A stretch of DNA of 64,000 bases, taken from contig JBGPQV010000014.1 in the NCBI GenBank assembly GCA_041489255.1, positions 1 through 64,000 of the forward strand, given 5' to 3'. Below the pieces are notes generated by a model. The model had not been told where the DNA came from. It worked only from the letters and a program-made list of their open reading frames with translations, and did not search any database. The DNA comes from Thermoplasmata archaeon (GTDB lineage: Archaea; Thermoplasmatota; Thermoplasmata; RBG-16-68-12; JAFNFQ01). Made by a program: the position numbers and the translations under genes. Positions 4,443 through 60,165 of this stretch are shown here, in pieces. The stretch's first letter is position 1. Each line of letters starts with the position of its first letter.

Positions 4443-5894
4443 TCAATCTAAATGCCGGCTCATCGTTTTCACCGTCGGACCGGTCGGGGAAAACATCTCC
4501 TGCTTCCATCGGAGAACTACCCCCCGGGAAATGAACCACGAGATCGTCAAGAGAACCCCGGACTCCGTCAGCAATGATGTCCAGGCAAGCAAAGGATTAC
4601 TCCGGATCAAGAAGGATACTATGGCCACAAGCACCAGAGGAGGGATGATTGCTCCTCCGAACTTTGCCAAAACTCTCACGTCGAACAGCATGGTATTCGT
4701 CCACAGCCCCGTCAACCGCGCCGTCACGCCCGCCACATAGACGGTAGTAGCCGCCGCTACAAGCAGCGACAAAGGAACCAAATCCAACTGTCCGTCAAGA
4801 ACCCCAATGACCACGACATAGGAACAGGATATGACGGCCGTCAGCAGGAAATAGAGTACGAGCTTCGCTCTGATAACCTGATCCGGGGTCACCGGCTGGA
4901 CGTTCATGAACTCATTTGTCTCGATGTTCGTCAGCCAAGAGTAGACCATGACACCGAGGAAACCGACCATTCCGCCGTAGAAGATTCCGTTGAACTCAAT
5001 CGGCACACCTATCCCTGAACGGAAGATCCACGCGAGCATGTAGATTGCGAGGAGTGGCCCCAAGAATCCGCCAACGACCGCACCTAGCGCCCCGCTCCGG
5101 CGGAGCTCCAGCCACTCCTTCGCCACGAGGGTCTTCAGAGGGCCGGAGAAAGAAAACCTGCGCTCCATGGGCAGCAGCGCACTCCCGTACATTCTGATCG
5201 GAGCCTCGAAACGCTCCTTGGTCAAGAGGACCGCAGCCGCTGACAGCAGGAAAGCGAGGATTGCGGAGATTGAGAGGAACCACGGATTCTTGTCTGCCCA
5301 GAAACCCAGCGGCGGGAGGATTTGACCGGCGGTCAGAATCTTCAGAGGCCAGACCAGAGCGACAAGCCCGAGGACGGCCAACAGTCCTGCGGCGGACACG
5401 GCCCTCGAACGCGTCGAAACGGTCGAAGCCAGGAAGGAGAGCGACATGCCAATCATGAAAGCGAGGAAGAGCGTCAGGCCGAGAAGGCCGACGCTGGTCA
5501 ATGAAGCGTTGGCGAATGGCGCACCTACCGCAATCCCGCCGACGATCGGCACGATGGCGTAGAGGATGTAGAACGTCGCGTCCTTGAGGTAGAAGATCGC
5601 CATGACCCTGCTGAACGAGACAGGCTGCAGGGAAGGCAGCGCCAGCAGGAAGTTCACCTGGCCCAGGCGCCTCGTCATCACCTGCTCCCCGATGCGGCCG
5701 AGCGCCCCGACGCCGAGGCCGTAAAGCACGCTCCCTGCATGGAGCATCAAGAGCACGGTCGGGACATCGATGCCCTTGAACCTCGAAAATGTGACTGCAA
5801 GGACGACAGACAGGAAGAAAATCATGACAGGGAAGAAACCGGACCCGATAGAGCCCGCGAACGACCTGTGGAGTCGTAGCTCCTCCTTGAACAT
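4443..5894 (-). CDS. ABC transporter permease (ABC-2-like, duplicated)
   Basis: ~12 TM segments, directly downstream of an ABC ATPase. Confidence 0.8.
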   Translation of the reverse strand: MFKEELRLHRSFAGSIGSGFFPVMIFFLSVVLAVTFSRFKGIDVPTVLLMLHAGSVLYGLGVGALGRIGEQVMTRRLGQVNFLLALPSLQPVSFSRVMAIFYLKDATFYILYAIVPIVGGIAVGAPFANASLTSVGLLGLTLFLAFMIGMSLSFLASTVSTRSRAVSAAGLLAVLGLVALVWPLKILTAGQILPPLGFWADKNPWFLSISAILAFLLSAAAVLLTKERFEAPIRMYGSALLPMERRFSFSGPLKTLVAKEWLELRRSGALGAVVGGFLGPLLAIYMLAWIFRSGIGVPIEFNGIFYGGMVGFLGVMVYSWLTNIETNEFMNVQPVTPDQVIRAKLVLYFLLTAVISCSYVVVIGVLDGQLDLVPLSLLVAAATTVYVAGVTARLTGLWTNTMLFDVRVLAKFGGAIIPPLVLVAIVSFLIRSNPLLAWTSLLTESGVLLTISWFISRGVVLRWKQEMFSPTGPTVKTMSRHLD

Positions 5895-5934: not shown

Positions 5935-6771
5935 TCACTCCTCCGTCACGAGCCGCATGAATATGTCCTCCAGGCGCTCGCCCGCCCTGGACCGGATCTC
6001 ATCCAAGGCGCCGATCGCCACTATCCCCCCACGGTTGATTATGGCAAGCCGCGTGCAGAGCTTTTCGGCGATCTCCAGGATGTGCGTGCACATGAAGATG
6101 GTCTTTCCCTTCCTGACATGCTCGGCCAGATAATCCCTCACTTTCCGCTGGAAGACTGGGTCGAGGTTAATGAGAGGTTCGTCCAAGAGCAGGAGGTCCG
6201 GTTCGGGGATGAAGGCGGAGGCCAGCATGATCTTCTGCCTCTGACCCTTCGAGAGGTCGCGGCACAGCACGTCCTTCTTCTCCCTGATGTCGAAGAAGTC
6301 CAACCACTTGTCGACGCGCTCCTGGACTTTGTCCAGATCCCGGATGCGACATATGAGCTCGAGGAACTCCTGGACGGTGAGGAAAGTCGGCGGGGTCTCG
6401 GACTCGGGGACGATCCCCACCTTCCTTTTGAGGGCGATGCCGTCGCTGAAGGACACCCCCATGGTCTCCCCTTCCCCCTTATCCGGGGAGAGCTGACCGG
6501 TGAGTATCCGCACGAGGGTCGTCTTCCCGGCCCCGTTGGGACCGAGGAGACCGAAGAATTCGCCTCTACCGACGGAGAAGCTCACGCCGTCGACGGCACG
6601 GACCTCGCCGAAAGCCTTGGCTATGCCGGAAACCCTGATCGCCGGCGACGACCGAGGAGTCGTTGATGGAGCGCCACCCGATGCGGACATCTCCACGCAA
6701 GAAACGACGGATGTTCTTATTCTCTTCCCCTCGGCTCGCGCTGTTTGATACCGAGCCCTGCTGGCAACCAC
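5935..6771 (-). CDS. ABC transporter ATP-binding protein
   Basis: Walker A GPNGAGKT, signature LSKGQ, Walker B LLLDEP; true start probably near 6690. Confidence 0.95.
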   Translation of the reverse strand: MVASRARYQTARAEGKRIRTSVVSCVEMSASGGAPSTTPRSSPAIRVSGIAKAFGEVRAVDGVSFSVGRGEFFGLLGPNGAGKTTLVRILTGQLSPDKGEGETMGVSFSDGIALKRKVGIVPESETPPTFLTVQEFLELICRIRDLDKVQERVDKWLDFFDIREKKDVLCRDLSKGQRQKIMLASAFIPEPDLLLLDEPLINLDPVFQRKVRDYLAEHVRKGKTIFMCTHILEIAEKLCTRLAIINRGGIVAIGALDEIRSRAGERLEDIFMRLVTEE

Positions 6772-7242: not shown

Positions 7243-7262
7243 AGCACCCTAAGAGAAGGGGT

Positions 7263-7286
7263 GCCAGGTGACCGCCGTAGGCCCCC
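7263..7286. repeat. attachment site, left copy (displaced 3' end of rnpB)
   Basis: Identical to 18920-18943; extends to 30 bp with one mismatch (7257-7286 vs 18914-18943). Confidence 0.92.
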
Positions 7287-7323
7287 CTCAGCGCATGGAG
7301 AGTTACCTACGGCAGTCAGACCA

Positions 7324-8277
7324 CTAGCGGATGTAGGCCGAATCATCGGTCTCGGTCTCCTCCTTCTTTGGCGGTTCAAACGTCTTCTCGAAGGCCTCCC
7401 AGTGCCGCTCGTCTTGCCATTGGCGGTAGTGCTGGTAGATCGTCTTCGGGTCAGCCCATCCTCCCTGAGCCTGCAGGTCTTTAACGTCGCCCTTCCACAT
7501 TGTCGCTCCGGTTCTACGGAAGGCACGCGGCGTTATCGTGTCCGGCAAGCCCGCACGGCCGCACGCTCGCCTGATGACCTCGAGCGGGTAGCGGCGGTGA
7601 TGCGGTCGGCCTGGCATGACCTCAAAGAGATAGACTGAAGGCTTATGTCTTTCGATGTAGCGACCTAGAGTTCTGGCGGTCTCCTTGGTGATGAACGGCT
7701 TGACCCTCCGGTTCGTCTTTTGCTGGACCTTGCCATCGATGCAGGGATGGTCCACGTCGAGACGTACCTGAGAGAGACGGACGTTCACCAGATCGCTAGG
7801 CCTCAGCAAGCTGTCGTGTTGCAGCAGCACAAGCGCGAGTTCTTTCAGATTTCCCTGTCTCTCCAGCTCACGCTTGAGCGGAAGCCAGTCAGCCTCTTCG
7901 TCGATCAGGTAGCGGTCTTCCAGCAATTCCTTCGACGGCATCGGGAACCGGAGCGGTTCGTCCTCTTCATCCCGTATCTTCTTGGACCTCAAGTACCAGG
8001 TCAACGCGGGACAAACTACCAGTCTCGAATTGACTCGATACTTCCGGCAGATGATTTGCTGATAGTAGGCGTCGACGCTCTGCGGTGTGATCGGTTCTCC
8101 GTCGAGCCATGTCAAGAAGGCAACCACGTACTGCCAGTATCGATCCAGCGTGGCCTCGTTGACATGGCCCTTCCGTTTTACGAATCCCCGGAAGGCCTCT
8201 TCATCGGAGAGAGCGGGAATCGGCATTATCCGTGCCCCCCGAAGGCTCCTGCTGAGACGTTCAATGATGCTAGCCAC
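7324..8277 (-). CDS. tyrosine recombinase/integrase
   Basis: LLRPSDL (catalytic R), TPRAFRRTGAT, QGGWADPKTIYQHY (W...Y); N-terminal SAM-like domain ATLDRYWQYVVAFL. Confidence 0.93.
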   Translation of the reverse strand: MASIIERLSRSLRGARIMPIPALSDEEAFRGFVKRKGHVNEATLDRYWQYVVAFLTWLDGEPITPQSVDAYYQQIICRKYRVNSRLVVCPALTWYLRSKKIRDEEDEPLRFPMPSKELLEDRYLIDEEADWLPLKRELERQGNLKELALVLLQHDSLLRPSDLVNVRLSQVRLDVDHPCIDGKVQQKTNRRVKPFITKETARTLGRYIERHKPSVYLFEVMPGRPHHRRYPLEVIRRACGRAGLPDTITPRAFRRTGATMWKGDVKDLQAQGGWADPKTIYQHYRQWQDERHWEAFEKTFEPPKKEETETDDSAYIR

Positions 8278-8460: not shown

Positions 8461-9138
8461 CTAGCCATTCGACACCTCTGAAACGGGTTGCCGACTATGG
8501 GTAGCCGTTCGTGATGCTGAAACGACGCTTTTGGCAAGCCGCCTTGCGCTCGACGGGGGTATCTGCGTCCTAGTGGTTATCTCGGACCACGAAAGGCCTT
8601 GTGCGCGCAGCTCCACGATCTGCGCAGCCTGGTAGCCGTAGTCCCTCCGGGGACGGTTCGGCGGCTTGCCGCTCCTCGTCTTCCATTCCCCCGTGTCCTT
8701 GTGGATCTCCTTGAGACGGCTGAAGCTCGCCTTGATCCTCTCGCCCTTCCGCTCCGAGCCCATCTTGGCGAGCGTGGCAAAGAGCGAGATCACGGCGTCC
8801 CTGAAGGGGCCGAGCGTGCTGAGGTACATCTCCTGGTGGCTCACCCAATCGAGGCCGAGCTCCTGAAAGCGGTAGATAAGGTCGATCGTGTCCTTGACTC
8901 CTTCTCGGGAGATCCTGTCGAGCGCCCAGAAGACGACCACCTTGAACTTGCCATGATGGGCGTCGAGCAGGAGCTTCTCGAGGGCGGGTTTGTGCTCTTC
9001 CTTCCCCCGCACGTTCTCGTCGACGTACTCCGCATAGACCTCCCATTCCCGAGGTTTGCAGAACTGCCTCAGCTCGCGCAGCTGGTTCTCCACTTCCTGG
9101 CGGTCCGTCGACACGCGAGCATAGAGGGCGGCCTTCAT
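8461..9138 (-). CDS. serine recombinase (resolvase/invertase) with C-terminal HTH
   Basis: MKAALYARVSTDRQ, LDRISR, HTH QGLSWSEITTRTQIPPSSARRL; ATGA overlap with the upstream ORF. Confidence 0.93.
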   Translation of the reverse strand: MKAALYARVSTDRQEVENQLRELRQFCKPREWEVYAEYVDENVRGKEEHKPALEKLLLDAHHGKFKVVVFWALDRISREGVKDTIDLIYRFQELGLDWVSHQEMYLSTLGPFRDAVISLFATLAKMGSERKGERIKASFSRLKEIHKDTGEWKTRSGKPPNRPRRDYGYQAAQIVELRAQGLSWSEITTRTQIPPSSARRLAKSVVSASRTATHSRQPVSEVSNG

Positions 9139-9377
9139 TCCTTCGTGCCCTCCATCCTCTTCTCCCGGCGATCGCGTCGCCTCAGAACTCGCAGGAGCCT
9201 CGCTGCCAGGCGGGGAACCCTCTTGCCCTGCAGGGCGCGGCGGTTCTCGATCGACACGCAGCGACTGCAGATGTAGTGACCCGCCGGCCACATCCCGCGC
9301 TTGACGGGGAAGCTCTCGGGGTCGTTGCCGTAGAGCTGCACGTCGCGGCGCGTCCCGCAGTAGGAGCAGCGCATCAT
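9135..9377 (-). CDS. small Zn-finger protein
   Basis: CSYC...CSRC; coupled start/stop overlaps on both sides. Confidence 0.65.
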   Translation of the reverse strand: MMRCSYCGTRRDVQLYGNDPESFPVKRGMWPAGHYICSRCVSIENRRALQGKRVPRLAARLLRVLRRRDRREKRMEGTKE

Positions 9378-9664
9378 CACAGTTCGACCCTCCTCTCCAC
9401 GCCAGAGCACGCATGACTTTTCGTGCAGCTCTGGCACCGCAACATCAGGCAGTTCGGGCAACTCCTGAGTTCGCTCCGCTCAAACGACTTCCCACATTCG
9501 CAGCACTCCGTCACATCCGGCGCCGTTATCGGAGCAGTCGCCTTGGCGCGTTCTTTCTCGATCAGGATCTCAAGGTCCTTCCTGATGGCGGTGACGGCAT
9601 CTTCGACGGACTCCAGCTTCGCGGAGATCATGACGAGTCGGCCAACGTCGATATCCGCTGTCAT
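9377..9664 (-). CDS. coiled-coil plus Cys-rich Zn-binding protein
   Basis: MTADIDVG... coiled coil, then CECGK...CPNC...CQSC...HAC; ATGA overlap with the parB-like stop. Confidence 0.7.
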   Translation of the reverse strand: MTADIDVGRLVMISAKLESVEDAVTAIRKDLEILIEKERAKATAPITAPDVTECCECGKSFERSELRSCPNCLMLRCQSCTKSHACSGVERRVEL

Positions 9665-10986
9665 CGAGAGTCTCCCCGGATCCTGAGGTCTATCTCGTCC
9701 AGGACCCCGTTGCGGGCTTTCCCCTTCGCCTCGAGGTCCCGGAGCGCCTCGAGCGTCTCCAGGTCCTTGCTCGGCAGCCGGCTGCACACCTGGGCCACCG
9801 TGCCGTCGAGGACCTTCGCGTCGATCGCCTTCGCCTTGACCTTCTTGACGTCGACCTTTGGCAGCGACTTCTTCTCCCATGCACGGAACGCCTCTTTCAT
9901 CTCCTTGCGCCGCCTGTTGTCGTACGCCTGCACCTGCACCTCGGTCTTCTCGCCGGTCGAGTACGCGTGAGGCACGAGGTAGACGCTGAGGTCCTTCTTC
10001 ACCGCCGACGTCCAGTGGACGTTGAACCCGTAAGACCCAAACACGATGCTCCTGACGTCTCCCTCCTTCACCTGCTCGAGCATCGCTTTCGTGATCGAGA
10101 GCGCGTCATGGAAGCTCCTGATCGTCTGCCCCTCCGTCGCGTCCCTCTTCACCGCGCGCCGCGGTGTCGGCGAATAATCGTAGGCGCGATCTCGTGTGTC
10201 GATCTTGATTGCCTTTCCGGTGTTGCCGTTCCAGCAGTGACCGCCGTCACAGGTGACGTCGTGATCGTTCTTGTGCTCGTGCAGGAACTTCTTAGGAGGG
10301 GATCCGCACGTCGGGCACGGCTTGAAGGCGGCGAACTTCTTCATCCTCGCCTCCTCCTGGCGCCAGGCGCCGATCCTCCACACAGCTTCGTTCTTGAATT
10401 CCTCCGCGGGGACCTCCTGGTCCTCGACGAGCTCGGCGAGGCTCTCCACGAGGTCACGTCCATCGTCCAGGTCTTTCGCCCCTGCCGGGATCCCGGCGAG
10501 GACCTCCGCGTGGTGGGGCGAAATTATTCCGCGGCGAATAAGCCCCTGGACCTTGCTGCTGAACTTCAATAGGGCGAGGCGCTTCGCGACGTGCGACTGA
10601 CTCTTCCCGATCTTCTTCGCGACGTCCTGCTGCCTGCACTCCGTGGAGTCGATGTATGCCTGCAGGGCCCTCGCCTCGTCCACCGGGTCCAGGTCCTCGC
10701 GCTGCAGGTTCTCGACCAGCTGGGCCTCGACTATCTCCGCGGCGTTCATCGTCCGCTCGACTACGGGGACCTCTTTCAGTCCCGCCAGCTGCGCCGCCCT
10801 GTACCGCCGGAAGCCGCAGACCAGGCGGTGCCTGTGGTCCTCGCCGTGCTGCGTGACGATCAGCGGCTCGAGCACGCCCTGGACCTTGATCGACGCGATG
10901 AGCTCCGCCAGGTCCTTGTCGGACGTCTCGCGGATGTTGCCCGTGGCGTTGATCAGGTTGAGCGGGAGGGTCTTCAGGCCACTCAT
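9661..10986 (-). CDS. ParB/Spo0J-domain protein with Zn ribbon and extended C-terminus
   Basis: ELIASIKVQGVLEPLIV, LVCGFRRYRAA (GxRR), ENLQREDL, HTH QQDVAKKIGKSQSHVAKRL, CPTC...CDGGHC. Confidence 0.9.
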   Translation of the reverse strand: MSGLKTLPLNLINATGNIRETSDKDLAELIASIKVQGVLEPLIVTQHGEDHRHRLVCGFRRYRAAQLAGLKEVPVVERTMNAAEIVEAQLVENLQREDLDPVDEARALQAYIDSTECRQQDVAKKIGKSQSHVAKRLALLKFSSKVQGLIRRGIISPHHAEVLAGIPAGAKDLDDGRDLVESLAELVEDQEVPAEEFKNEAVWRIGAWRQEEARMKKFAAFKPCPTCGSPPKKFLHEHKNDHDVTCDGGHCWNGNTGKAIKIDTRDRAYDYSPTPRRAVKRDATEGQTIRSFHDALSITKAMLEQVKEGDVRSIVFGSYGFNVHWTSAVKKDLSVYLVPHAYSTGEKTEVQVQAYDNRRRKEMKEAFRAWEKKSLPKVDVKKVKAKAIDAKVLDGTVAQVCSRLPSKDLETLEALRDLEAKGKARNGVLDEIDLRIRGDSR

Positions 10987-11483: not shown

Positions 11484-11782
11484 CGACCGCCCCCGTTCTC
11501 TGGCTCGCCGAGTTCAAGTGGCACGTGGACCCACGCCAAACACCGCGGGCAAAACGACCCGAATCCATCGGGATAGCTCGGGCGGTCCCTGCAACGATGC
11601 AGGAGGACTTTTCCCCCGCAATGAGGGCACGTCCCGACTTTGAATGGCGAATCGGGAGAGAGATGGCGGCGGCGTGATCTCCCTGGAGGGGAGGCGGATG
11701 GGACACACGCCGCCGCCGGAAGAGGAATCATAAACAGGAACTTGGCGAGAACGAGGGAATTGAGAGAGGGCGGGAGGGTCAC
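11480..11782 (-). CDS. small Zn-ribbon protein
   Basis: CPHCGG...CPRC; GTG start overlapping the helicase stop with GGAGG upstream (alternative ATG at 11731). Confidence 0.55.
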   Translation of the reverse strand: MTLPPSLNSLVLAKFLFMIPLPAAACVPSASPPGRSRRRHLSPDSPFKVGTCPHCGGKVLLHRCRDRPSYPDGFGSFCPRCLAWVHVPLELGEPENGGGR

Positions 11783-14307
11783 GAACTGCCTCCTTGGAGC
11801 TCCTCGGCCTCTTTCGGTGGCAACTCGAGGCGGACTCGGCAGGCAGCGATTTGTTCGGCGGCCAGGGGATGCCCATTTCGCGCCATCATGTCCTTGACCT
11901 GTGAGAGCGCGAGACCGGGGGGCAATTTCTTGTCCTGCATGCGGAGATCGTTGACGAGCCGGAGGCTTTCCTCGACGAGGGGGTCCTGACTCTCTCGCTC
12001 GCTCTGCGTCTGAGTCTCCTGTACGGAGGCCATTTTCGGTGTAACAGCGTAACACCCTGAAGTCTCCATGGAGGAGGAGGGTGTTACAATGTTACGTAAC
12101 ATGTTACATTCCTGTGTAACAAGAGTCTCTCCATTGGGTGGGTCGCTTGATACACTGTTACACCCTTTTTGACCTCTGCTCTCACGCGCGCGTAGGTCCT
12201 CTTCGAGCGTCCGTTGTACCTCCTCCTCCGGGGCCGGTGCACCCTCCGGCACGAACACCGCTCGTTCCGTCTTCTTGTCGAACCGCTCTACCTTGGCTTC
12301 CTCCCCATCCTTGTCGAGCACAATCTTGCGCGGAATCGCCCACGTATCCGCGGCCATCTGCCCGAGGGACTTCAGGGACGATATCTGCATGTCCGGGAGT
12401 GCCTGACGATTGTACTCGTCCAAGATCGGCTTTGTCACCCACACACCCGGGATTTGCACGTCCGCGACATCGGCGGTGTCTTGCTTCCAGATCTCGCCCT
12501 CCCCGCGGATGTCCTCGATGCCGCCCGACCGCACGATCCGGTTCTTCACGCGCCACATCGCGAAGAACGACCGGAAGGACTCGAGGTGCGACTCCGCACC
12601 CTCGTACGTCGAGGCCTCGACCGGCAGGACCACGTCGCGGAGGAATGCCTCCACGCTAGGCGGGGCCCACACGATCCCATGCTTCCGGAACAAGAGCTCC
12701 CACATCCGGAGCCCCATCAGTACGACGGCCCAGGCCTGCGGCCGGCGTACGTCCTGGAACGTGCCCCGGTATGCGCGCGTGACCTCCGTCTCGAGGACGT
12801 GAATCCGCGCGACGAGGTCCGCCATGGTCCCGTACGCGGCCACGGCCTCGCGGGCGAGCGCGACACCGATCGGCCGCAACTGTGCGCGCAGCTCGTCCGC
12901 CTTCCTCTTGTTGGTCTTCCGTCGCGTGCGCTGCATCGCGTCGAACTTCGGCGCGATGAACCGGGCGAGCACGGACCCGGACTTCACCGGGAACGCGTTT
13001 CCCGTGATCATGAGGACCGCGCGCGATCGGTACGTCGTCATCCCGAGGTCCTGCGTCCCCCGCTGGAGCGCGATCTCCCGCTCCGATGCGGACTTCAGCG
13101 TCGCCCCGAGCTTGCGGTAGTCGAGCTTCTCGCCCTCCTCGATCCACAGTGGCGTGCACGCGGAGTCGATGAACGCGCCGAACCGATACGGCGAGTCGAG
13201 GGTGTCGCCTGGCACGGACTTCCTCCCGTACAGACGCTCGGAGAAGCATTCGAGGACGAATGACTTGCCGAGGCCGGACTCGAGGGAATGGTTGTACACG
13301 TGCGGCACGATCACGTCGTGGGCCCGCAGGCGCATCGCGAACGGCGCGATCGCCGAGAGCGCCATCGTGGGGTACACCTCGTATGGGTGGAACAGCGTCG
13401 CGAGTTCCATGTATGCCGCCAGGTCTTCGGGCCGAGGTTCGCACGCGATTGCCTCCCGCATCTCGCGGAGCGCGGTTCCCTCCTCCTGGAGGGGCGCCAT
13501 CGGGTCCGTGCACAGGTCGAGCTTCCCGCCCTCGTCTTCGTACACGCCGAAGGTCGCGTGGGCCTTCATGGGCGTCGGTGCGAAGTGCAGGAGAACGTGA
13601 TTCAGGACGTCGTTCGCGTGTCCATGCGCGACGGTCTTCGCCTCCCTGTCGAGCCGCTTCCGCAAGGCCTCGGCAGTGACGATGATCTCGCGGTCGAGTT
13701 TTACTTTGAAGAAATTGTCGCCATCCAGGTCCACCTGCTGCAATGGCCGAACGTATCCGAAGACGACTGGGATGTCCTCCTCGTGGTCACCATGCTTGAC
13801 GATGAGATCGATCCCCTGTGGGGTCCAGCGGATTCTCCTTGACTTACTGATCTCCCATTCGTTGGAGGGCGCATCCGTCGCCGAGTCTGGAGGGAACTCC
13901 GCGATGAGGCTCTCGACGTAGCTCTTCGTGAACCGCGCGCGGCTCGGGTTATCGCCGCCAAGCTGCAGGTGCTCCAGGATGTCTGAAAGAGGACGTCTGC
14001 CCCCGTCGGTCGCGGTGAACTGAGGACAGACTATGTTGTACCAGTCCTCGGCCCGGGCGCGCTTGTGCTCCGAGAGGTCCACGAGTATCGTCGAGTCCTC
14101 GCCACTCGTCGACCGACCGCAGCCGCCGAGGTCTCTCGGACAGCGGTCGGGAGGTCCCTGGGCAGTAGGAGGAATTGCGACCTCGGTGCCGCAGCGGACG
14201 CACCAGAACAAAACGTCCGAGGGAGAGTTCAGTGGATCGCCCCCGTCTGCTCGAGTCCATAGACAACGAGGATGAAGCCCCCGACTCCCATGCCAGAATT
14301 CAGCCAA
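11779..14307 (-). CDS. replication protein: N-terminal Zn finger plus SF3/DUF927-like helicase ATPase
   Basis: CVRC...CPRDLGGC; Walker A SGLGKS, Walker B LWIEE, motif C VLMITGN, Arg finger VLARF; true start probably ~14210-14232. Confidence 0.8.
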   Translation of the reverse strand: MAEFWHGSRGLHPRCLWTRADGGDPLNSPSDVLFWCVRCGTEVAIPPTAQGPPDRCPRDLGGCGRSTSGEDSTILVDLSEHKRARAEDWYNIVCPQFTATDGGRRPLSDILEHLQLGGDNPSRARFTKSYVESLIAEFPPDSATDAPSNEWEISKSRRIRWTPQGIDLIVKHGDHEEDIPVVFGYVRPLQQVDLDGDNFFKVKLDREIIVTAEALRKRLDREAKTVAHGHANDVLNHVLLHFAPTPMKAHATFGVYEDEGGKLDLCTDPMAPLQEEGTALREMREAIACEPRPEDLAAYMELATLFHPYEVYPTMALSAIAPFAMRLRAHDVIVPHVYNHSLESGLGKSFVLECFSERLYGRKSVPGDTLDSPYRFGAFIDSACTPLWIEEGEKLDYRKLGATLKSASEREIALQRGTQDLGMTTYRSRAVLMITGNAFPVKSGSVLARFIAPKFDAMQRTRRKTNKRKADELRAQLRPIGVALAREAVAAYGTMADLVARIHVLETEVTRAYRGTFQDVRRPQAWAVVLMGLRMWELLFRKHGIVWAPPSVEAFLRDVVLPVEASTYEGAESHLESFRSFFAMWRVKNRIVRSGGIEDIRGEGEIWKQDTADVADVQIPGVWVTKPILDEYNRQALPDMQISSLKSLGQMAADTWAIPRKIVLDKDGEEAKVERFDKKTERAVFVPEGAPAPEEEVQRTLEEDLRARESRGQKGCNSVSSDPPNGETLVTQECNMLRNIVTPSSSMETSGCYAVTPKMASVQETQTQSERESQDPLVEESLRLVNDLRMQDKKLPPGLALSQVKDMMARNGHPLAAEQIAACRVRLELPPKEAEELQGGSS
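12038..12164. repeat. iteron-like cluster, putative replication origin
   Basis: Eight GTTAC/GTAAC pentamers in ~125 bp, including the perfect palindrome ATGTTACGTAACAT at 12089-12102. Confidence 0.65.
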
Positions 14308-15311: not shown

Positions 15312-15355
15312 CGAGGACCTCCGCGTGGTGAGGCGTGATTATTCCGCGGCGAATA
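15312..15355. repeat. 44-bp copy of an internal segment of the parB-like gene (10497-10540)
   Basis: 41/44 identical; both contain the dyad TATTC-CGCGGC-GAATA. Confidence 0.85.
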
Positions 15356-15379
15356 GACACCAGGACCGCGTACCACAAC

Positions 15380-16750: not shown

Positions 16751-17686
16751 TCACCGTAGTAGTTGATTGGGAGAGCCCTCCATAGGAGAGTTGCCCTGGA
16801 ACGGTGAATTGAAGCATTTCTCCCCCCCTTTTTCATGGAGAAGGACGACCGAGCCGAACTGCGTGACCATGCTGGAGATCGCGGCCTTGAACCCGAGCGA
16901 TCGGTCGGCCGAGAACTGAGAGAGGTAGTAGTCGTGGGCGCCGTCCGGCCCCGTCAGGTTGAGAAGGTCGCCGGCGGCCTCTATCTTCCTGGAGCCGTAA
17001 TCGAAAAGCTTCACGCTCATTCCCATCTCGGCGACGTGCAAGTAGGCCTGCTCCGCCGGAGCAGGGCCGATACCCGCGTCCAACGTCACGTTCACTTCGG
17101 ACAGCTGTCCGGTGTTCCAGTTACCGCCGCTGCACGCCTGCGTCCACGTCGCCACGTAGACGTTCCAGGCCGGGGTCATCGTGAACTGCTGCACGGGACA
17201 TCCTTGCATTCCCCCCATGTCCCTGTTCGATACGTTGAGCCGGAGGTACGCTATCCCCGATGGATCCACCGTGGCGAGGGCCCTCGCCCAGACCGAGACG
17301 CTGGCGACGTCCTCCCCCGTGTCCGTGAACGGGCGCGTGTCGAACAGTACCCACCCGCTGTTGACGATGCCCGACGAACCCACGATGTAGGTCGGGTCCT
17401 GCGAGTCGCTCACGCATTGCGTGTGATTCGTGCAACCGCCCATGTTCGTCCAGTCCACGAATTGGAAGCCGAGGTCTCCCAGCAACGTCGCGTTCACCCA
17501 AGGTGACGACCTTGCCCAGTTGCACTCTGGCGAGTTCTCCGGGTACCTCCCGTCCACATCGTAGACGCACGTCCAGTTCAGGTCCGTCCTGGCCCGCGCT
17601 CCTGGCGGGACGATGACCAGCGATCCCGCAACGACGCTCAGCACCAACACTAGACACACGATTCGTCCGATTCTGTTTTCTCTCAA
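16751..17686 (-). CDS. secreted beta-rich protein, possibly C-terminally truncated
   Basis: Signal peptide RIGRIVCLVLVLSVVAGSLVIVPPGARA; Cys pairs; TTG start overlapping the upstream stop; composition changes near 16830. Confidence 0.7.
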   Translation of the reverse strand: MRENRIGRIVCLVLVLSVVAGSLVIVPPGARARTDLNWTCVYDVDGRYPENSPECNWARSSPWVNATLLGDLGFQFVDWTNMGGCTNHTQCVSDSQDPTYIVGSSGIVNSGWVLFDTRPFTDTGEDVASVSVWARALATVDPSGIAYLRLNVSNRDMGGMQGCPVQQFTMTPAWNVYVATWTQACSGGNWNTGQLSEVNVTLDAGIGPAPAEQAYLHVAEMGMSVKLFDYGSRKIEAAGDLLNLTGPDGAHDYYLSQFSADRSLGFKAAISSMVTQFGSVVLLHEKGGEKCFNSPFQGNSPMEGSPNQLLR

Positions 17687-18768
17687 GTCGTCGCCTCCTT
17701 TTTCAAAGCATCAATCAATCTGGGCGGGACGTCCTCGATCGCCCGCTCATGCCATTCTTCTTCGTAGCTCCACTCCGCGCTCGCGAGGACTTCTTGGACG
17801 GCCTGGTCGATGACGGGCTGGAACGAGCTCAGGTCCGGCAACCTCGCCTCGGGGAACGCGACCTCCAGGTCGACGGCCTCACCGTCCTCGATCTCCACGG
17901 CTCGGGCGGCTTGCTCGATTCTCCGGGTGACCTCCCCCAGGAGGCCCGCGCCGACCGTGGCCGCGGCCTCTCGGATCCATAACGTCCGCTTTGCCAGCTC
18001 GGTGGGGCTGATGTCCAGCCCGAGGATTACCATGCGGGCCTTGACGTAGGCGAGGGTCGGGTTCTCGATCCCCATTCGGGTCTTCAGGACCGCGAGGCTC
18101 GAGATCTCGTACCTGATCTCGCCCCTGTACTTCGGGGGCTCGGGTTGCGAAGGCAGGTTCAGCCGCTCTGCGTCCCCGTAGAGCAGGCCGACGTCCTGGG
18201 CCGCCTCGATGATGAGATCGAGGTGACTGGTCCGGCGGGAGCCCTCGCCGAACACTCGGTAGATCCCGGTCCCCGCGCGGTCCGCGTCATGGAAGATGAG
18301 GACGGGCTTGTCGTCGTCCTGGAGCAGCTGGCGGACCAGGCGGGTAGGGAACCCCTTCCCGGCGACGACGACTCCCCAACCGTAGTCGGAGAGCTCTTTG
18401 ATCTTGTCGGCCTCGCCCGCCTTCTCCACGAATATCCAGCCGCGGTTCTGCTCCCACGCGTCCGGGAGGTCCTCGATGGGGTTCTTCGTCCCCTGGTCGT
18501 AGAACCAGCCTTCGGGCTTGGCCTCGGGCCGCTGCAGCCCCTCGTTCTGCTCGAGGGAAGTCCACACGTCGTCGCGGTAGGTCGAGTAGCCCTGGTCGGT
18601 CAGGAACCAGTCGAACTCCTCCTGGGTGATCCTCTTGCCCAGCTCGGGGGCGATGAGGTCTCTCACGATGTAATAAGAGTCCCGTTGGAATTCGTCCTTG
18701 AGCAGTTCGTAGTTGGCGCGGATGATCTCCCTCACGACTTTCCAGAGGTTCGTCTTGGCCTTGGTCAT
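17683..18768 (-). CDS. stand-alone Topo VI subunit A/Spo11-like protein (catalytic Tyr plus TOPRIM)
   Basis: QRDSYY (RDxYY), WIFVEK, AGKGFP, IFHDADRAG (DxD), DVGL, RYEISSL; RBS AGGTGA. Confidence 0.85.
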   Translation of the reverse strand: MTKAKTNLWKVVREIIRANYELLKDEFQRDSYYIVRDLIAPELGKRITQEEFDWFLTDQGYSTYRDDVWTSLEQNEGLQRPEAKPEGWFYDQGTKNPIEDLPDAWEQNRGWIFVEKAGEADKIKELSDYGWGVVVAGKGFPTRLVRQLLQDDDKPVLIFHDADRAGTGIYRVFGEGSRRTSHLDLIIEAAQDVGLLYGDAERLNLPSQPEPPKYRGEIRYEISSLAVLKTRMGIENPTLAYVKARMVILGLDISPTELAKRTLWIREAAATVGAGLLGEVTRRIEQAARAVEIEDGEAVDLEVAFPEARLPDLSSFQPVIDQAVQEVLASAEWSYEEEWHERAIEDVPPRLIDALKKEATT

Positions 18769-18919
18769 GTTCTCACCTGGATGAGCTGAAAAATAAAGGG
18801 CGCCCCCGCCCGCCAGGGCGGAGGCTTGGGGGGAAACTAGTCGGGGTAAAACTCGGAACGTCTCTATGGTAGGGGCCTACGGCAGTCGGTAATCCTATGG
18901 AGAAGACTGCCGTAGGGGG

Positions 18920-18943
18920 GCCAGGTGACCGCCGTAGGCCCCC
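18920..18943. repeat. attachment site, right copy (intact 3' end of rnpB)
   Basis: Identical to 7263-7286. Confidence 0.92.
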
Positions 18944-19278
18944 TTCTGTTCTAACGGCATTTGACTTAGCGTCCTACCTGGCCTATCGGCCTTTTTGGAC
19001 TTGCTCCGATGGGGAGTCGCCGTCTCACCAGTCGGCTCCGATCGCTCGGCTCCTGCACTCCGCCGCCAGCGTCCTCGTCATTACGTGCCGCGATTCATCC
19101 TCGGCGGCGGCTGTGTCGTTTCTGCGCCCTTGCCATCCCTCTCGGGATACCGGCTTGCGCCGGTCCACCAGCGTCCCCGCGGCCTCCGCGAGAGGCGCGC
19201 GGTTCGCTCGCCGGTTTGGAGGGGGGACCTTCCTCAGCAACCACGTTGGTCACCGTCGGCCGTCCACGGTCTCCTGGC
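18920..19278 (-). ncRNA. rnpB: RNase P RNA (archaeal, type A-like)
   Basis: Minus strand has GAGGAAGGUCCCCCCUCC (CR I), GCGCAGAAACG (CR II), GGUGAGACGGC (CR III), GGAGCAAG and AACAGAAGGGGGCCUAC (CR V); P1 helix GCCAGGAGACCGU/GCGGUCACCUGGC closes the ends. Confidence 0.95.
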
Positions 19279-23875: not shown

Positions 23876-24349
23876 TTACTGCCGGCGTTCCTTCGCCGCC
23901 CTCGCCCTCCTCAATGACTCGTCGGTCCTGCGCCGTGCCCCCTCCTGCCGCTGTTCCTTCGTCCAGCGCTTCAATGTCTGGATGTAGTTCGGGAGGCCTT
24001 CGACATCCTTCACATCCTTCCTGCAGAGGACTGCGATCTTTTGGCGGTACTCCAGGTTCGGCTTGGCTCCGTTCGCAGTCAGCCCCTCCCGGATGCGTCT
24101 GCACAATGTCCCGCCGCGGGAGTCCCAGTCCGTCAACACGATGACCAGCCTGTGCTTACTTGAAACCTGCTCGCAGAAGTTGAAGAGAGACGAGCCCTTG
24201 TTCACTGTAATGATTTCGCCCTCCATCCCCAAGTTTCGAAGAGCAGTGGCATCTTTCCCGCCTTCAACGATGAGCGGCACTGCAACGTTCTCCTCCCGAA
24301 GTTCATCCAGAGTCTCCTGCAATTTCTCAAGGATGTCCTCATATTTCAT
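23876..24349 (-). CDS. small TOPRIM-domain protein
   Basis: LIVEGGKD, IVLTDWDSRG, KDVEGL. Confidence 0.9.
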   Translation of the reverse strand: MKYEDILEKLQETLDELREENVAVPLIVEGGKDATALRNLGMEGEIITVNKGSSLFNFCEQVSSKHRLVIVLTDWDSRGGTLCRRIREGLTANGAKPNLEYRQKIAVLCRKDVKDVEGLPNYIQTLKRWTKEQRQEGARRRTDESLRRARAAKERRQ

Positions 24350-37527: not shown

Positions 37528-38253
37528 TCACTCCAGTACCTTAGCGACGAAAGCCTTCGTGCGTTCCTGGCGGGGATTGACGAGCACTTCCTCCGGCGTC
37601 CCCTCTTCTATGATCCGCCCGTCGTCCATGAAGACAACGCGCTTGGCCACGTTTCTGGCGAACCCCATCTCATGGCTCACAACAACCATCGTCATCCCAT
37701 CGCGCGCGAGCTGCGTGATGACGTCGAGCACTTCCTTGATGTACTCCGGGTCAAGGGCGCTTGTCGGCTCGTCGAACAACACCGCTTTGGGATCCATGGC
37801 GACGGCACGCGCTATCGCAACGCGCTGCTGTTGACCGCCGGATAGCTCGGCGGGATAGGAATCGTATTTCTCTCCGAGACCAACTCGCTCGAGCAATTCC
37901 TTCCCCTTTTTCTCAGCCTGCTCGCGCGAGAGCCCCATTACCTTCCGCAGCCCCAGGGTCACATTTTCCAGTGCTGTCAAATGGGAGAATAGGTTGAACT
38001 GCTGGAAAACCATCCCGACCTGCTGGCGGACCCATTCAGGTCTGATTTTCGGTGCGTTGACTTTTACCCCCTCGATGAAGACGCTCCCTTTATCAGGCGT
38101 GACTAGTAGGTTGATGCACCTCAGGAGGGTGCTCTTTCCAGAGCCGCTCGGCCCGACCACCACGAGCACGTCTCCCTTCTCCACCGACAGGCTGACGCCC
38201 TTCAGGACGTGCAGCGAGCCGAACCACTTGTGAAGTCCTTCCACGCGTATCAA
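37528..38253 (-). CDS. polar amino acid ABC transporter ATP-binding protein (GlnQ-like)
   Basis: [41 protein letters not shown]. Confidence 0.96.
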
Positions 38254-59238: not shown

Positions 59239-60165
59239 TCACCCGTTCGACAACAGCTTCTTCCGCATTCCTTCCAGCTGCTCATTGACCCTCCTTGTCT
59301 TGCTGGCGATGCCCGCCAGGGGTTCTCCGAGGATCAAACGCATCTCGTCGGCGCCTCCGATGTCAGGCATAGACCCCTTCGGAAGCTCGATGTTGTCGCG
59401 ATACCGCCCGTAGGTCTCCAGCATGAATCGAACCTTGTCGAGAATCTGCGGCACGAAATCGGAAATCACGAAGTCGAGCTTCTCGCCCATGTAGACGATG
59501 TCGACGACATCCCTGAGCTTGCGGATCTTCCTGGTCAGCGCCGCCCTGCATTTCTCGACGAATATCTCGCGCGCATCATAGCAGGGCATCTCTATCTTCG
59601 CCGAGTATTCCTTCCAGGGTTTCTCGTATAGGAAGGCGAGTTCCCCGGATTCCAGCCGCTCGACGTAGCTGTGCACATTCCTTTCTTCGACGGCGAAGAG
59701 CATCTTGTCGACCAGATTGACCTCGACCTTGATCCTGGACGGGACTCCGAGGACCTCCGAATCGTACCCGAGCCAGAGGAGGACCATCCTGCCCCCGCTG
59801 CTGATGTGCACCTCGCTCTTGTCCGACTTGTCGCCCTCGAAGCCAAAGCCCAGGTCCCCTGAGATGGACTTGACCCGCCTCAGGACCTCGTCAATTTCCT
59901 TCGAGCACCGCCGCTTAGTCTCCGACAGGCTTCTCCCTTTCCAGATCGCCGAGTCTCGCCAGGTGAAGTCCACATCCTCGGAGAAGCGGTAGTAGCCCAG
60001 GTAGGCCTTGATGAGGCACGTCCCGCCCTTGAAGGCGAGGTTCCTCCTGAGGTACGTGTCCAGGGACATGGCGTGGAGAAGCCGGTGCAGGTGGAAGTCC
60101 ATCTCAATGATGTCAGTCCTCCGCGGCTTCCCCAGGGCGTTCAGGCGCTCGAAGAAATCCTTCAT
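59239..60165 (-). CDS. type IV TA toxin, AbiEii/AbiGii nucleotidyltransferase
   Basis: LAFKGGTCLIKAY..YRFSEDVDF, EKCRAAL.R...RDVVDI. Confidence 0.93.
   Translation of the reverse strand: MKDFFERLNALGKPRRTDIIEMDFHLHRLLHAMSLDTYLRRNLAFKGGTCLIKAYLGYYRFSEDVDFTWRDSAIWKGRSLSETKRRCSKEIDEVLRRVKSISGDLGFGFEGDKSDKSEVHISSGGRMVLLWLGYDSEVLGVPSRIKVEVNLVDKMLFAVEERNVHSYVERLESGELAFLYEKPWKEYSAKIEMPCYDAREIFVEKCRAALTRKIRKLRDVVDIVYMGEKLDFVISDFVPQILDKVRFMLETYGRYRDNIELPKGSMPDIGGADEMRLILGEPLAGIASKTRRVNEQLEGMRKKLLSNG

Follow-up and report, generated by a model that had tools for sequence, protein, structure and literature searches.

A 64-kb window of a Thermoplasmata archaeon (the whole stretch of DNA analysed, 64,000 nucleotides, positions 1 to 64,000 of contig JBGPQV010000014.1) carries, on an integrated mobile element, a gene for a protein of 361 amino acids (aa), one of a small clade, mostly from archaea, whose members occur on such elements. 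It is well supported that this protein is a complete A-type subunit of the type IIB topoisomerases, with the Arg/Tyr pair of the 5Y-CAP domain, the glutamate and DxD of the Toprim domain and the T2BI box, and with no B moiety. The clade is a separate one, which stands beside Topo VIII and has a C-terminal extension of its own; that archaeal elements can carry A subunits on their own has been known since 2019. The gene and its parts were located as follows:

17683..18768, minus strand: Top6A-like gene (P0001), ATG start, 361 aa, recognised by Pfam, the family alignment, the AlphaFold2 model and Foldseek.
18454..18768, minus strand: N-terminal 5Y-CAP-like winged-helix part (aa 1-105), delimited from the invariant R29/Y33, hhalign and Foldseek.
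18682-18684 and 18670-18672, minus strand: codons of R29 and of the catalytic Y33, respectively, with R36 at position Y+3.
18064..18453, minus strand: Toprim domain (aa 106-235), from Pfam, the alignment with PDB 1d3y and the invariant E115/D161/D163/G166.
18424-18426 and 18280-18288, minus strand: Toprim residues E115 and D161xD163, respectively.
18094..18114, minus strand: T2BI-like box RYEISSL (aa 219-225), corresponding to the dimer-interface motif of the type IIB topoisomerases.
17686..18021, minus strand: C-terminal helical extension (aa 250-361), from the model helices, the end of the hhalign alignment and an alignment of seven sequences.

TOP6A-Spo11_Toprim (PF21180) was the only Pfam domain recognised in the window protein (aa 132-210, E 2.9e-8, passing the cut-off), and Top6A of M. 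jannaschii (1d3y) was its only meaningful sequence match in the PDB. The motifs were RDSYY (R29 and Y33, with only 28 aa ahead of R29), FVEKAG (E115), FHDADRAG (D161, D163 and G166) and RYEISSL (R219, E221 and S224); the last, which the preliminary description had not named, fits the R/KxExxA/S pattern of the T2BI box, which in Top6A dimers makes contact with the catalytic Tyr of the 5Y-CAP domain and with its Arg (accessible text of PMC7671362). R29, Y33, E115, D161, D163, G166, R219 and E221 were invariant in an alignment with 25 relatives showing 39-64% identity to the window protein (P0024, scored near-identically to P0023, was omitted), so that these motifs are real and under selection. 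The preliminary description of this DNA, made from the sequence alone, had reported the RDxYY tyrosine and the Toprim acidic residues as intact, and this was borne out. Among the full-length family sequences, R/K..[YF]Y was present in 47 of 49 and a T2BI-like box in 44 of 49.

The fold was that of a Topo VI-A chain. The AlphaFold2 model of the window protein (alignment of 25 sequences) had a predicted local distance difference test value (pLDDT) of 87.7 and a predicted template modelling score (pTM) of 0.81, and all eight PDB matches found by Foldseek at E<=1e-3 were Topo VI-A chains, including M. mazei 9o0g (8e-7), M. jannaschii 1d3y, 2q2e and S. shibatae 2zbk. Since 281-315 columns were aligned, the structural alignment reaches beyond the Toprim domain. 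Template modelling scores were low (0.37-0.45), as expected with two domains and an extra C-terminal part. MksG (8b7f, E 1.2e-3), Spo11 (2.6e-3) and JetD (7til, E 0.045) were weaker matches, and the neighbours in the ESM Atlas, viral clusters with PF21180 (scores 0.92-0.96), are leads only. The C-terminal helical extension announced in the preliminary description is real: 136 residues follow the T2BI box, with model helices at aa 260-290, 313-329, 336-344 and 349-356 and block pLDDT values mostly between 85 and 96. Up to about aa 282 the extension aligned with Topo VIII-type proteins (hhalign ended at column 282 or 294), and aa 283-361 were specific to the family. Its conservation was weak in the alignment of seven sequences.

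Twenty-six proteins of 351-397 aa were retrieved by a word-indexed search, and a profile search of 1.84 billion cluster representatives gave 252 matches at E<=1e-3, 57 at <=1e-10 and 42 at <=1e-30. The family was separated by a score gap (at least 59 bits for the family and its fragments, at most 55 bits for all others) and its members were 351-475 aa long. Named members came from metagenome-assembled genomes (MAGs) of Archaeoglobus, Archaeoglobales, Geoglobus and Bathyarchaeum, plus one MAG labelled “bacterium”; the hosts span Thermoplasmata-like archaea, Archaeoglobi and Bathyarchaeia. With P0001 as a tblastn query there were no matches in 50,697 phage records (E<=1) or in plasmids (E<=0.01), and with P0098 and P0080 there were none in the phage records. 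The clade was not described in the papers on Topo VIII and Mini-A that were found, though subscription papers and supplements may hold it. One short Archaeoglobales “Topo VIII” appears in the accessible text of PMC7671362 as lacking the Bergerat and H2TH parts, which is ascribed there to its position at a contig end; it may in fact be a full-length member of the window protein's clade. The Archaeoglobales contig QMZC01000003.1 carries two family copies (loci L002 and L003) with 66% identity, separated by about 46 kb; each is near an integrase, and they appear to belong to two different integrated elements. The L003 copy, near the 5' end of the contig, is a complete open reading frame (ORF) of 384 aa, preceded by a stop codon and small unrelated ORFs.

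The A-moieties of plasmid-borne Topo VIII, an enzyme reportedly described by Gadelle in 2014 and surveyed by Takahashi in 2019 (PMC7671362), are well supported as the nearest detectable relatives of the clade. The family aligned with 24 Topo VIII-type A-moieties in hhalign (probability 99.7, E 2.4e-25) over columns 13-282, a span which takes in the CAP, the Toprim, the T2BI box and the first part of the extension, with R..YY..R in register. With the family profile, the distant matches listed scored 38-55 bits and the PDB Top6A sequences 27 and 14 bits, in the Toprim only; Topo VIII of P. polymyxa scored 31.7 bits and that of P. amygdali 23.4 bits, and that of H. jeotgali was not matched. Topo VIII is therefore preferred over Topo VI because of the best matches and the alignment coverage, and not because of every Topo VIII. 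Among the 79 of 93 distant matches with at least 250 aa, 16 had HATPase_c at the N-terminus and none had TP6A_N (Pfam); 22 of 72 had a Top6B-model match in the N-terminal half, and the best Top6A score was 50.9 bits against a cut-off of at least 424 (NCBIfam). One fused protein, P0115, matched plasmids named as Topo VIII carriers in the accessible text of PMC7671362 (P. polymyxa M1, P. amygdali pMPPla107, H. jeotgali plasmid 5 and Pseudomonas Leaf58). The same text names as a Topo VIII trait a conserved Arg at position +3 from the catalytic Tyr; this Arg was present in the window protein (R36), in 34 of 49 full-length family sequences and in all three named Topo VIII. The T2BI boxes of the family were RVELSAL (7), RVELNAL (3), RVELSAF (3) and others, and those of the named Topo VIII were RVELNSM, RVELNAM and RVEINAF.

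For the phylogeny, sequences were cut from 28 residues before R..YY to 110 after DxD, and 58 of 171 were dropped (fragments, or one motif missing). In a tree of 17 of the 48 family rows and all 65 others (LG+G4, quick search), the family branch had a support of 100 in the Shimodaira-Hasegawa-like approximate likelihood ratio test (SH-aLRT), and fused, intermediate and short forms were intermixed opposite it; the same family split was obtained from a subset of 38 rows under the C20 mixture model. When the three named Topo VIII were included (41 rows), the family kept its support of 100, the P. polymyxa and P. amygdali enzymes nested among the fused proteins (99), and that of H. jeotgali, on a branch of 2.34, was unplaced. 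The family did not fall inside the Topo VIII clade in these unrooted trees, being set apart from it by the branch with SH-aLRT 100. As the trees were unrooted and held neither Topo VI nor Mini-A, they demonstrate a distinct clade and not its origin.

A second clade of A-type proteins lacking a B moiety was also observed (P0079, P0081, P0085, P0107, P0108, P0116, P0123, P0130, P0138 and P0149; 406-477 aa, SH-aLRT 96-100), with the motifs RNLFY, DYDVNG and RVELNAL. The family aligned with these ten proteins over almost the full profile length (hhalign 99.4, E 6e-22), and P0079 weakly matched the JetD2 models of PADLOC.

Neither a fused nor an adjacent B moiety was detected. Pfam revealed no HATPase_c or Top6B domains and no SMC or Jet proteins in the 27 + 27 ORFs of the window, and no second Top6A gene and no Top6B, GHKL, SMC or Jet gene was present anywhere in the 64 kb; the sole SMC_N match was sub-threshold (35.2 bits, cut-off 40) and corresponded to an ordinary ABC-transporter ATPase (37528-38250). 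A B-moiety profile, built from 24 fused Topo VIII-type proteins and able to recover 12 proteins outside its building set, gave a best E of 0.54 over all ORFs in the window and in six related loci; it had no match among the 78 sequences or fragments of the family, in which no fused form was found. PADLOC returned no matches for the window protein or two further family members. These searches (Pfam, B-moiety profile and PADLOC) upheld the original statement that no GHKL B subunit, SMC or Wadjet gene accompanies the protein.

The six related loci covered up to 10 kb per side, three of them being short contigs or ending near the gene. Integrases were present in three of six and D5-type helicase domains in two of six (Pfam), together with toxin-antitoxin, HEPN, AAA_15, methylase and many helix-turn-helix (HTH) genes; ParB and GHKL domains were found in none of the six, and neither were SMC or Jet genes. 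The Top6A-like gene alone was common to the element and the related loci (all-against-all BLASTP, 1e-4). The preliminary description had linked the protein to the element's ParB in a common module, and this link was not supported, a ParB domain being found in none of the six loci. A split B subunit encoded as an upstream ORF in L003, L006, L002 or L005 was considered and rejected (Pfam, B-moiety profile and ORF check).

The residence of the gene on a mobile element was established from the following features, to which two large ORFs of the element are added:

18923..19275, minus strand: rnpB of the host (archaeal RNase P RNA), targeted by the integration (Rfam RF00373 RNaseP_arch, 122.8 bits, model 1-288 of 288).
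18914..18946, no strand assigned: rnpB-proximal attachment (att) repeat, 33 nucleotides (nt), overlapping the 3' end of rnpB (direct repeat D4).
7257..7289, no strand assigned: distal att repeat beside the integrase gene (direct repeat D4, 94% identical to 18914-18946).
7324..8277, minus strand: tyrosine integrase of the element (Pfam Phage_integrase 1.4e-13; PHROG integrase).
8461..9414, minus strand: serine recombinase/resolvase with HTH, a second recombinase beside the tyrosine integrase.
11779..14307, minus strand: ORF of 842 aa, containing CxxC pairs at its N-terminus and the string GLGKS.
16751..17686, minus strand: ORF of 311 aa with a hydrophobic, signal-like N-terminus; its start and the stop codon of the preceding Top6A-like gene overlap.

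The 33-nt repeats delimit an element of 11.7 kb, which has inserted into the 3' end of rnpB, and the Top6A-like gene is the first inside the rnpB-proximal repeat, as the preliminary description had placed it. Other genes of the element encode ParB (ParB_N and HTH_ParB), a ribbon-helix-helix protein, small zinc-ribbon-like ORFs, the 842-aa orphan and the 311-aa protein; no viral hallmark genes were found in it by the PHROG scan. Host genes flanking the element include GNAT, a LonB-like ATPase, DnaG and GINS; the DnaG shares about 70% identity with proteins from Thermoplasmata archaeon and Euryarchaeota archaeon RBG_16_68_13.

As to the function, the reading we favour, to which we give somewhat less than an even chance, is that the A-type protein stands alone as a homodimer which reversibly breaks the element's own DNA. 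Two copies would pair via the T2BI box, placing each Tyr33 opposite the Mg2+ site of the partner's Toprim, and the dimer would attack DNA by transesterification, without ATP, leaving a 5' phosphate link and a free 3'-OH; the break would be resealable because the bond energy stays in the phosphotyrosine link. The substrate would be the DNA of the element after excision. A break which starts or helps replication of the circular copy, analogous to that made by HUH Rep, would be the favoured role, and the unlinking or relaxing of sister copies the second choice. There are precedents in the accessible text of three sources: mouse SPO11 alone makes covalent double-strand breaks in vitro (PMC11922746), Topo VIII enzymes relax or linearise plasmids (PMC7671362), and a role as replication initiator has been proposed for the Topo mini-A of Asgard viruses (bioRxiv 10.1101/2021.07.29.453957). 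MksG, active independently of ATP though it lacks the CAP tyrosine, is a further precedent for action in the absence of a B subunit (PMC10123090).

Several points weigh against this reading. Archaeal Top6A alone, without Top6B and ATP, is not known to cleave DNA. The 842-aa orphan with its GLGKS string may be the replication protein of the element, and if it acts as a replicase the need for a further initiator is not evident. D5-type helicase domains are present in two of the related loci. No conserved neighbour gene or DNA site in the six loci pointed to a substrate, and the distal extension (aa 283-361), which has no counterpart, could bind a partner.

A bolder form of the proposal, which we regard as doubtful, is that of an autonomous, ATP-independent “half topoisomerase”, a homodimer whose tyrosine-linked, sequence- or structure-specific breaks would prime or resolve the replication of archaeal integrative elements. 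The protein would then be a type IIB counterpart of the HUH Rep or relaxase enzymes and a surviving stand-alone lineage near the ancestor, and Topo VIII would have arisen by the capture of a GHKL half.

A conflict nuclease, cutting foreign or host DNA like MksG/JetD and serving as a defence or exclusion gene, is rather unlikely. MksG (8b7f) and JetD (7til) were among the structural matches, the toxin-antitoxin, HEPN, AAA_15 and DNA methylase genes of the related loci are typical of defence-rich elements, and the two divergent copies on one Archaeoglobales contig fit an element-specific exclusion. However, the window protein and two family members gave no PADLOC match even though P0079, which also lacks a B moiety, matches JetD2, and the window holds no SMC or Jet partner. 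The Arg/Tyr pair is moreover invariant in the family, whereas MksG lacks the CAP tyrosine (accessible text of PMC10123090), and this difference argues for a covalent, reversible chemistry. The exclusion of competitors raised in the preliminary description is a possible role that gained no support from the PADLOC scan or from the search for SMC partners.

Less probable still is a partner-dependent A subunit, which would form an ATP-driven topoisomerase with the host Topo VI-B or with an unrecognised “Mini-B” of the element. Such a partner would give a role to the family-specific distal extension (aa 283-361), to which none is assigned, and split two-subunit Topo VIII enzymes exist (accessible text of PMC7671362). 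The next gene, for the 311-aa protein, overlaps the end of the Top6A-like gene and speaks for such a partner, but this neighbour has a signal-like N-terminus and no homologue in the other loci. The best E of the B-moiety profile (0.54 over the window and six loci), the lack of any conserved neighbour and the range of hosts, from Thermoplasmata-like archaea to Archaeoglobi and Bathyarchaeia, also stand against this reading. Borrowing of the host Top6B, suggested in the preliminary description, was judged unlikely; the accessible text of PMC7671362 argues likewise for Topo VIII and Mini-A.

Finally, a decaying Topo VIII, left without function or able only to bind DNA after the loss of its B half, is very improbable: the nearest relatives are indeed fused Topo VIII-type proteins, and a short Archaeoglobales protein is read as a truncated Topo VIII in the accessible text of PMC7671362, but 42 cluster representatives at E<=1e-30, catalytic residues invariant at 39-64% identity, a fully supported branch of its own and full-length ORFs with upstream stops and genes (e.g. 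L003) indicate purifying selection on an active enzyme.

The clade is a third kind of stand-alone A protein, placed beside Topo VIII rather than Mini-A, and it bears on what type IIB A subunits lacking a B subunit do on mobile elements. The members from thermophilic Archaeoglobi should suit biochemical and structural work. If the protein cleaves alone, it would offer a simple prokaryotic model for partner-independent break formation of the Spo11 type, and would bear on a lone A protein as the ancestor of the type IIB enzymes; if it needs a partner, this would point to a “Mini-B” outside the GHKL family.

One further feature concerns the expression of the gene:

18789..18825, minus strand: terminator-like hairpin and T-run between rnpB and the ATG, from the sequence and a pattern scan, with a putative function.

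The hairpin (18825-18802) has ten pairs, nine of them GC, and is followed by TTTATTTTT at 18797-18789. Oligo-T tracts end archaeal transcription, so that with this hairpin and T-run between rnpB and the start codon, read-through from rnpB, the source of expression suggested in the preliminary description, is not the most economical explanation. Some 25 nt ahead of the ATG, the T-run is alternatively a candidate TATA box for a nearly leaderless mRNA; GGTGA is present at 18777-18773, ahead of the ATG.

Repeats were observed at the ends of the element and inside it. A 12-bp inverted repeat (CCTACGGCAGTC...GACTGCCGTAGG, 18875-18913) lies just inside the rnpB-proximal att, with GACTGCCGTAGG repeated just within the distal att (7305-7316); both resemble the att core and may be integrase-binding sites. 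A 56-nt direct repeat (10497-10552 and 15312-15367, 88% identical) has one copy within the HTH-coding part of the parB ORF and the other in an apparently non-coding stretch, and holds the near-palindrome TTATTC-N6-GAATAA, a candidate ParB site. Five or six GTAACA/TGTTAC motifs, arranged as nested inverted repeats at 12041-12121 near the 3' end of the 842-aa ORF, could be an iteron, an origin or an array of binding sites. The 842-aa ORF itself had no Pfam, PHROG or PADLOC match and retrieved only itself in a search of 5.8 billion proteins. The 311-aa protein, with several Cys and NxS/T sites, had no family match, and none of the six related loci contained a homologue.

Other observations were made in the window outside the element. 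An ABC-type ATPase (5935-6771, minus strand) lies just outside the distal att and matched the mad3 / AriA-type models of PADLOC (E 1.2e-26); it adjoins a 483-aa protein (4443-5894, minus strand) with no Pfam or PADLOC match, and the two may be a defence-like pair or the ATPase an ordinary transporter component. An AbiEii-type nucleotidyltransferase toxin domain (type IV toxin-antitoxin) was encoded at 59239-60162 on the minus strand, followed by a 210-aa ORF with no matches. A host protein of 157 aa (23876-24349, minus strand), beside a GINS-like gene and near dnaG, gave weak Toprim matches.

Compared with known systems, the window protein shares with Topo VI-A/Spo11 its best structural matches, the RxxYY, E and DxD residues and the R/KxExxA/S box, but its gene lies on a mobile element and not in the core chromosome, and has no adjacent top6B. 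Identity as a canonical Top6A was rejected (22.3 bits in NCBIfam against an equivalog cut-off of 424, and no TP6A_N); as the preliminary description had supposed, the protein is distinct from chromosomal Top6A and has the 5Y-CAP fold. With MksG/JetD it shares the CAP-like and Toprim architecture, the lack of an ATPase of its own and a weak structural similarity; it differs in having no SMC-type partners and no PADLOC or DUF2399 match. MksG, which acts independently of ATP, has no tyrosine candidate in the domain equivalent to 5Y-CAP (accessible text of PMC10123090). Identity as JetD/MksG was ruled out by the invariant Tyr33, the lack of SMC or Jet genes and the PADLOC result.

What the window protein shares with Topo mini-A is that it stands alone, has a short N-terminus and is carried by an archaeal mobile element. 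Family members are, however, longer (351-475 aa against about 300), the window protein reaching 361 aa through its extension of about 110 aa. The xWELDAL box is the signature of Topo mini-A (accessible text of PMC7671362), and a WELDAL-type box was found in none of the 171 sequences scanned, including the window protein. There was no structural match in BFVD at E<=1e-3. None of six family members matched phrog_6247 (“DNA topoisomerase”), which we take to be the phage Mini-A family. Lacking the published signature and being nearer to the Topo VIII-type proteins, the family is probably not of the Mini-A type proposed in the preliminary description.

Topo VIII is the closest of these systems. Like it, the family has a CAP without the N-terminal B-binding part, resides on mobile elements, carries a RVEL-type box in many members and can be aligned for some 60 residues past the T2BI box. 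Unlike it, the family has no B moiety, fused or adjacent, and lacks an insertion of about 20 residues ahead of the T2BI box (hhalign); the box of the window protein is RYEISSL and not RVELNAM, and the distal C-terminal extension is its own.

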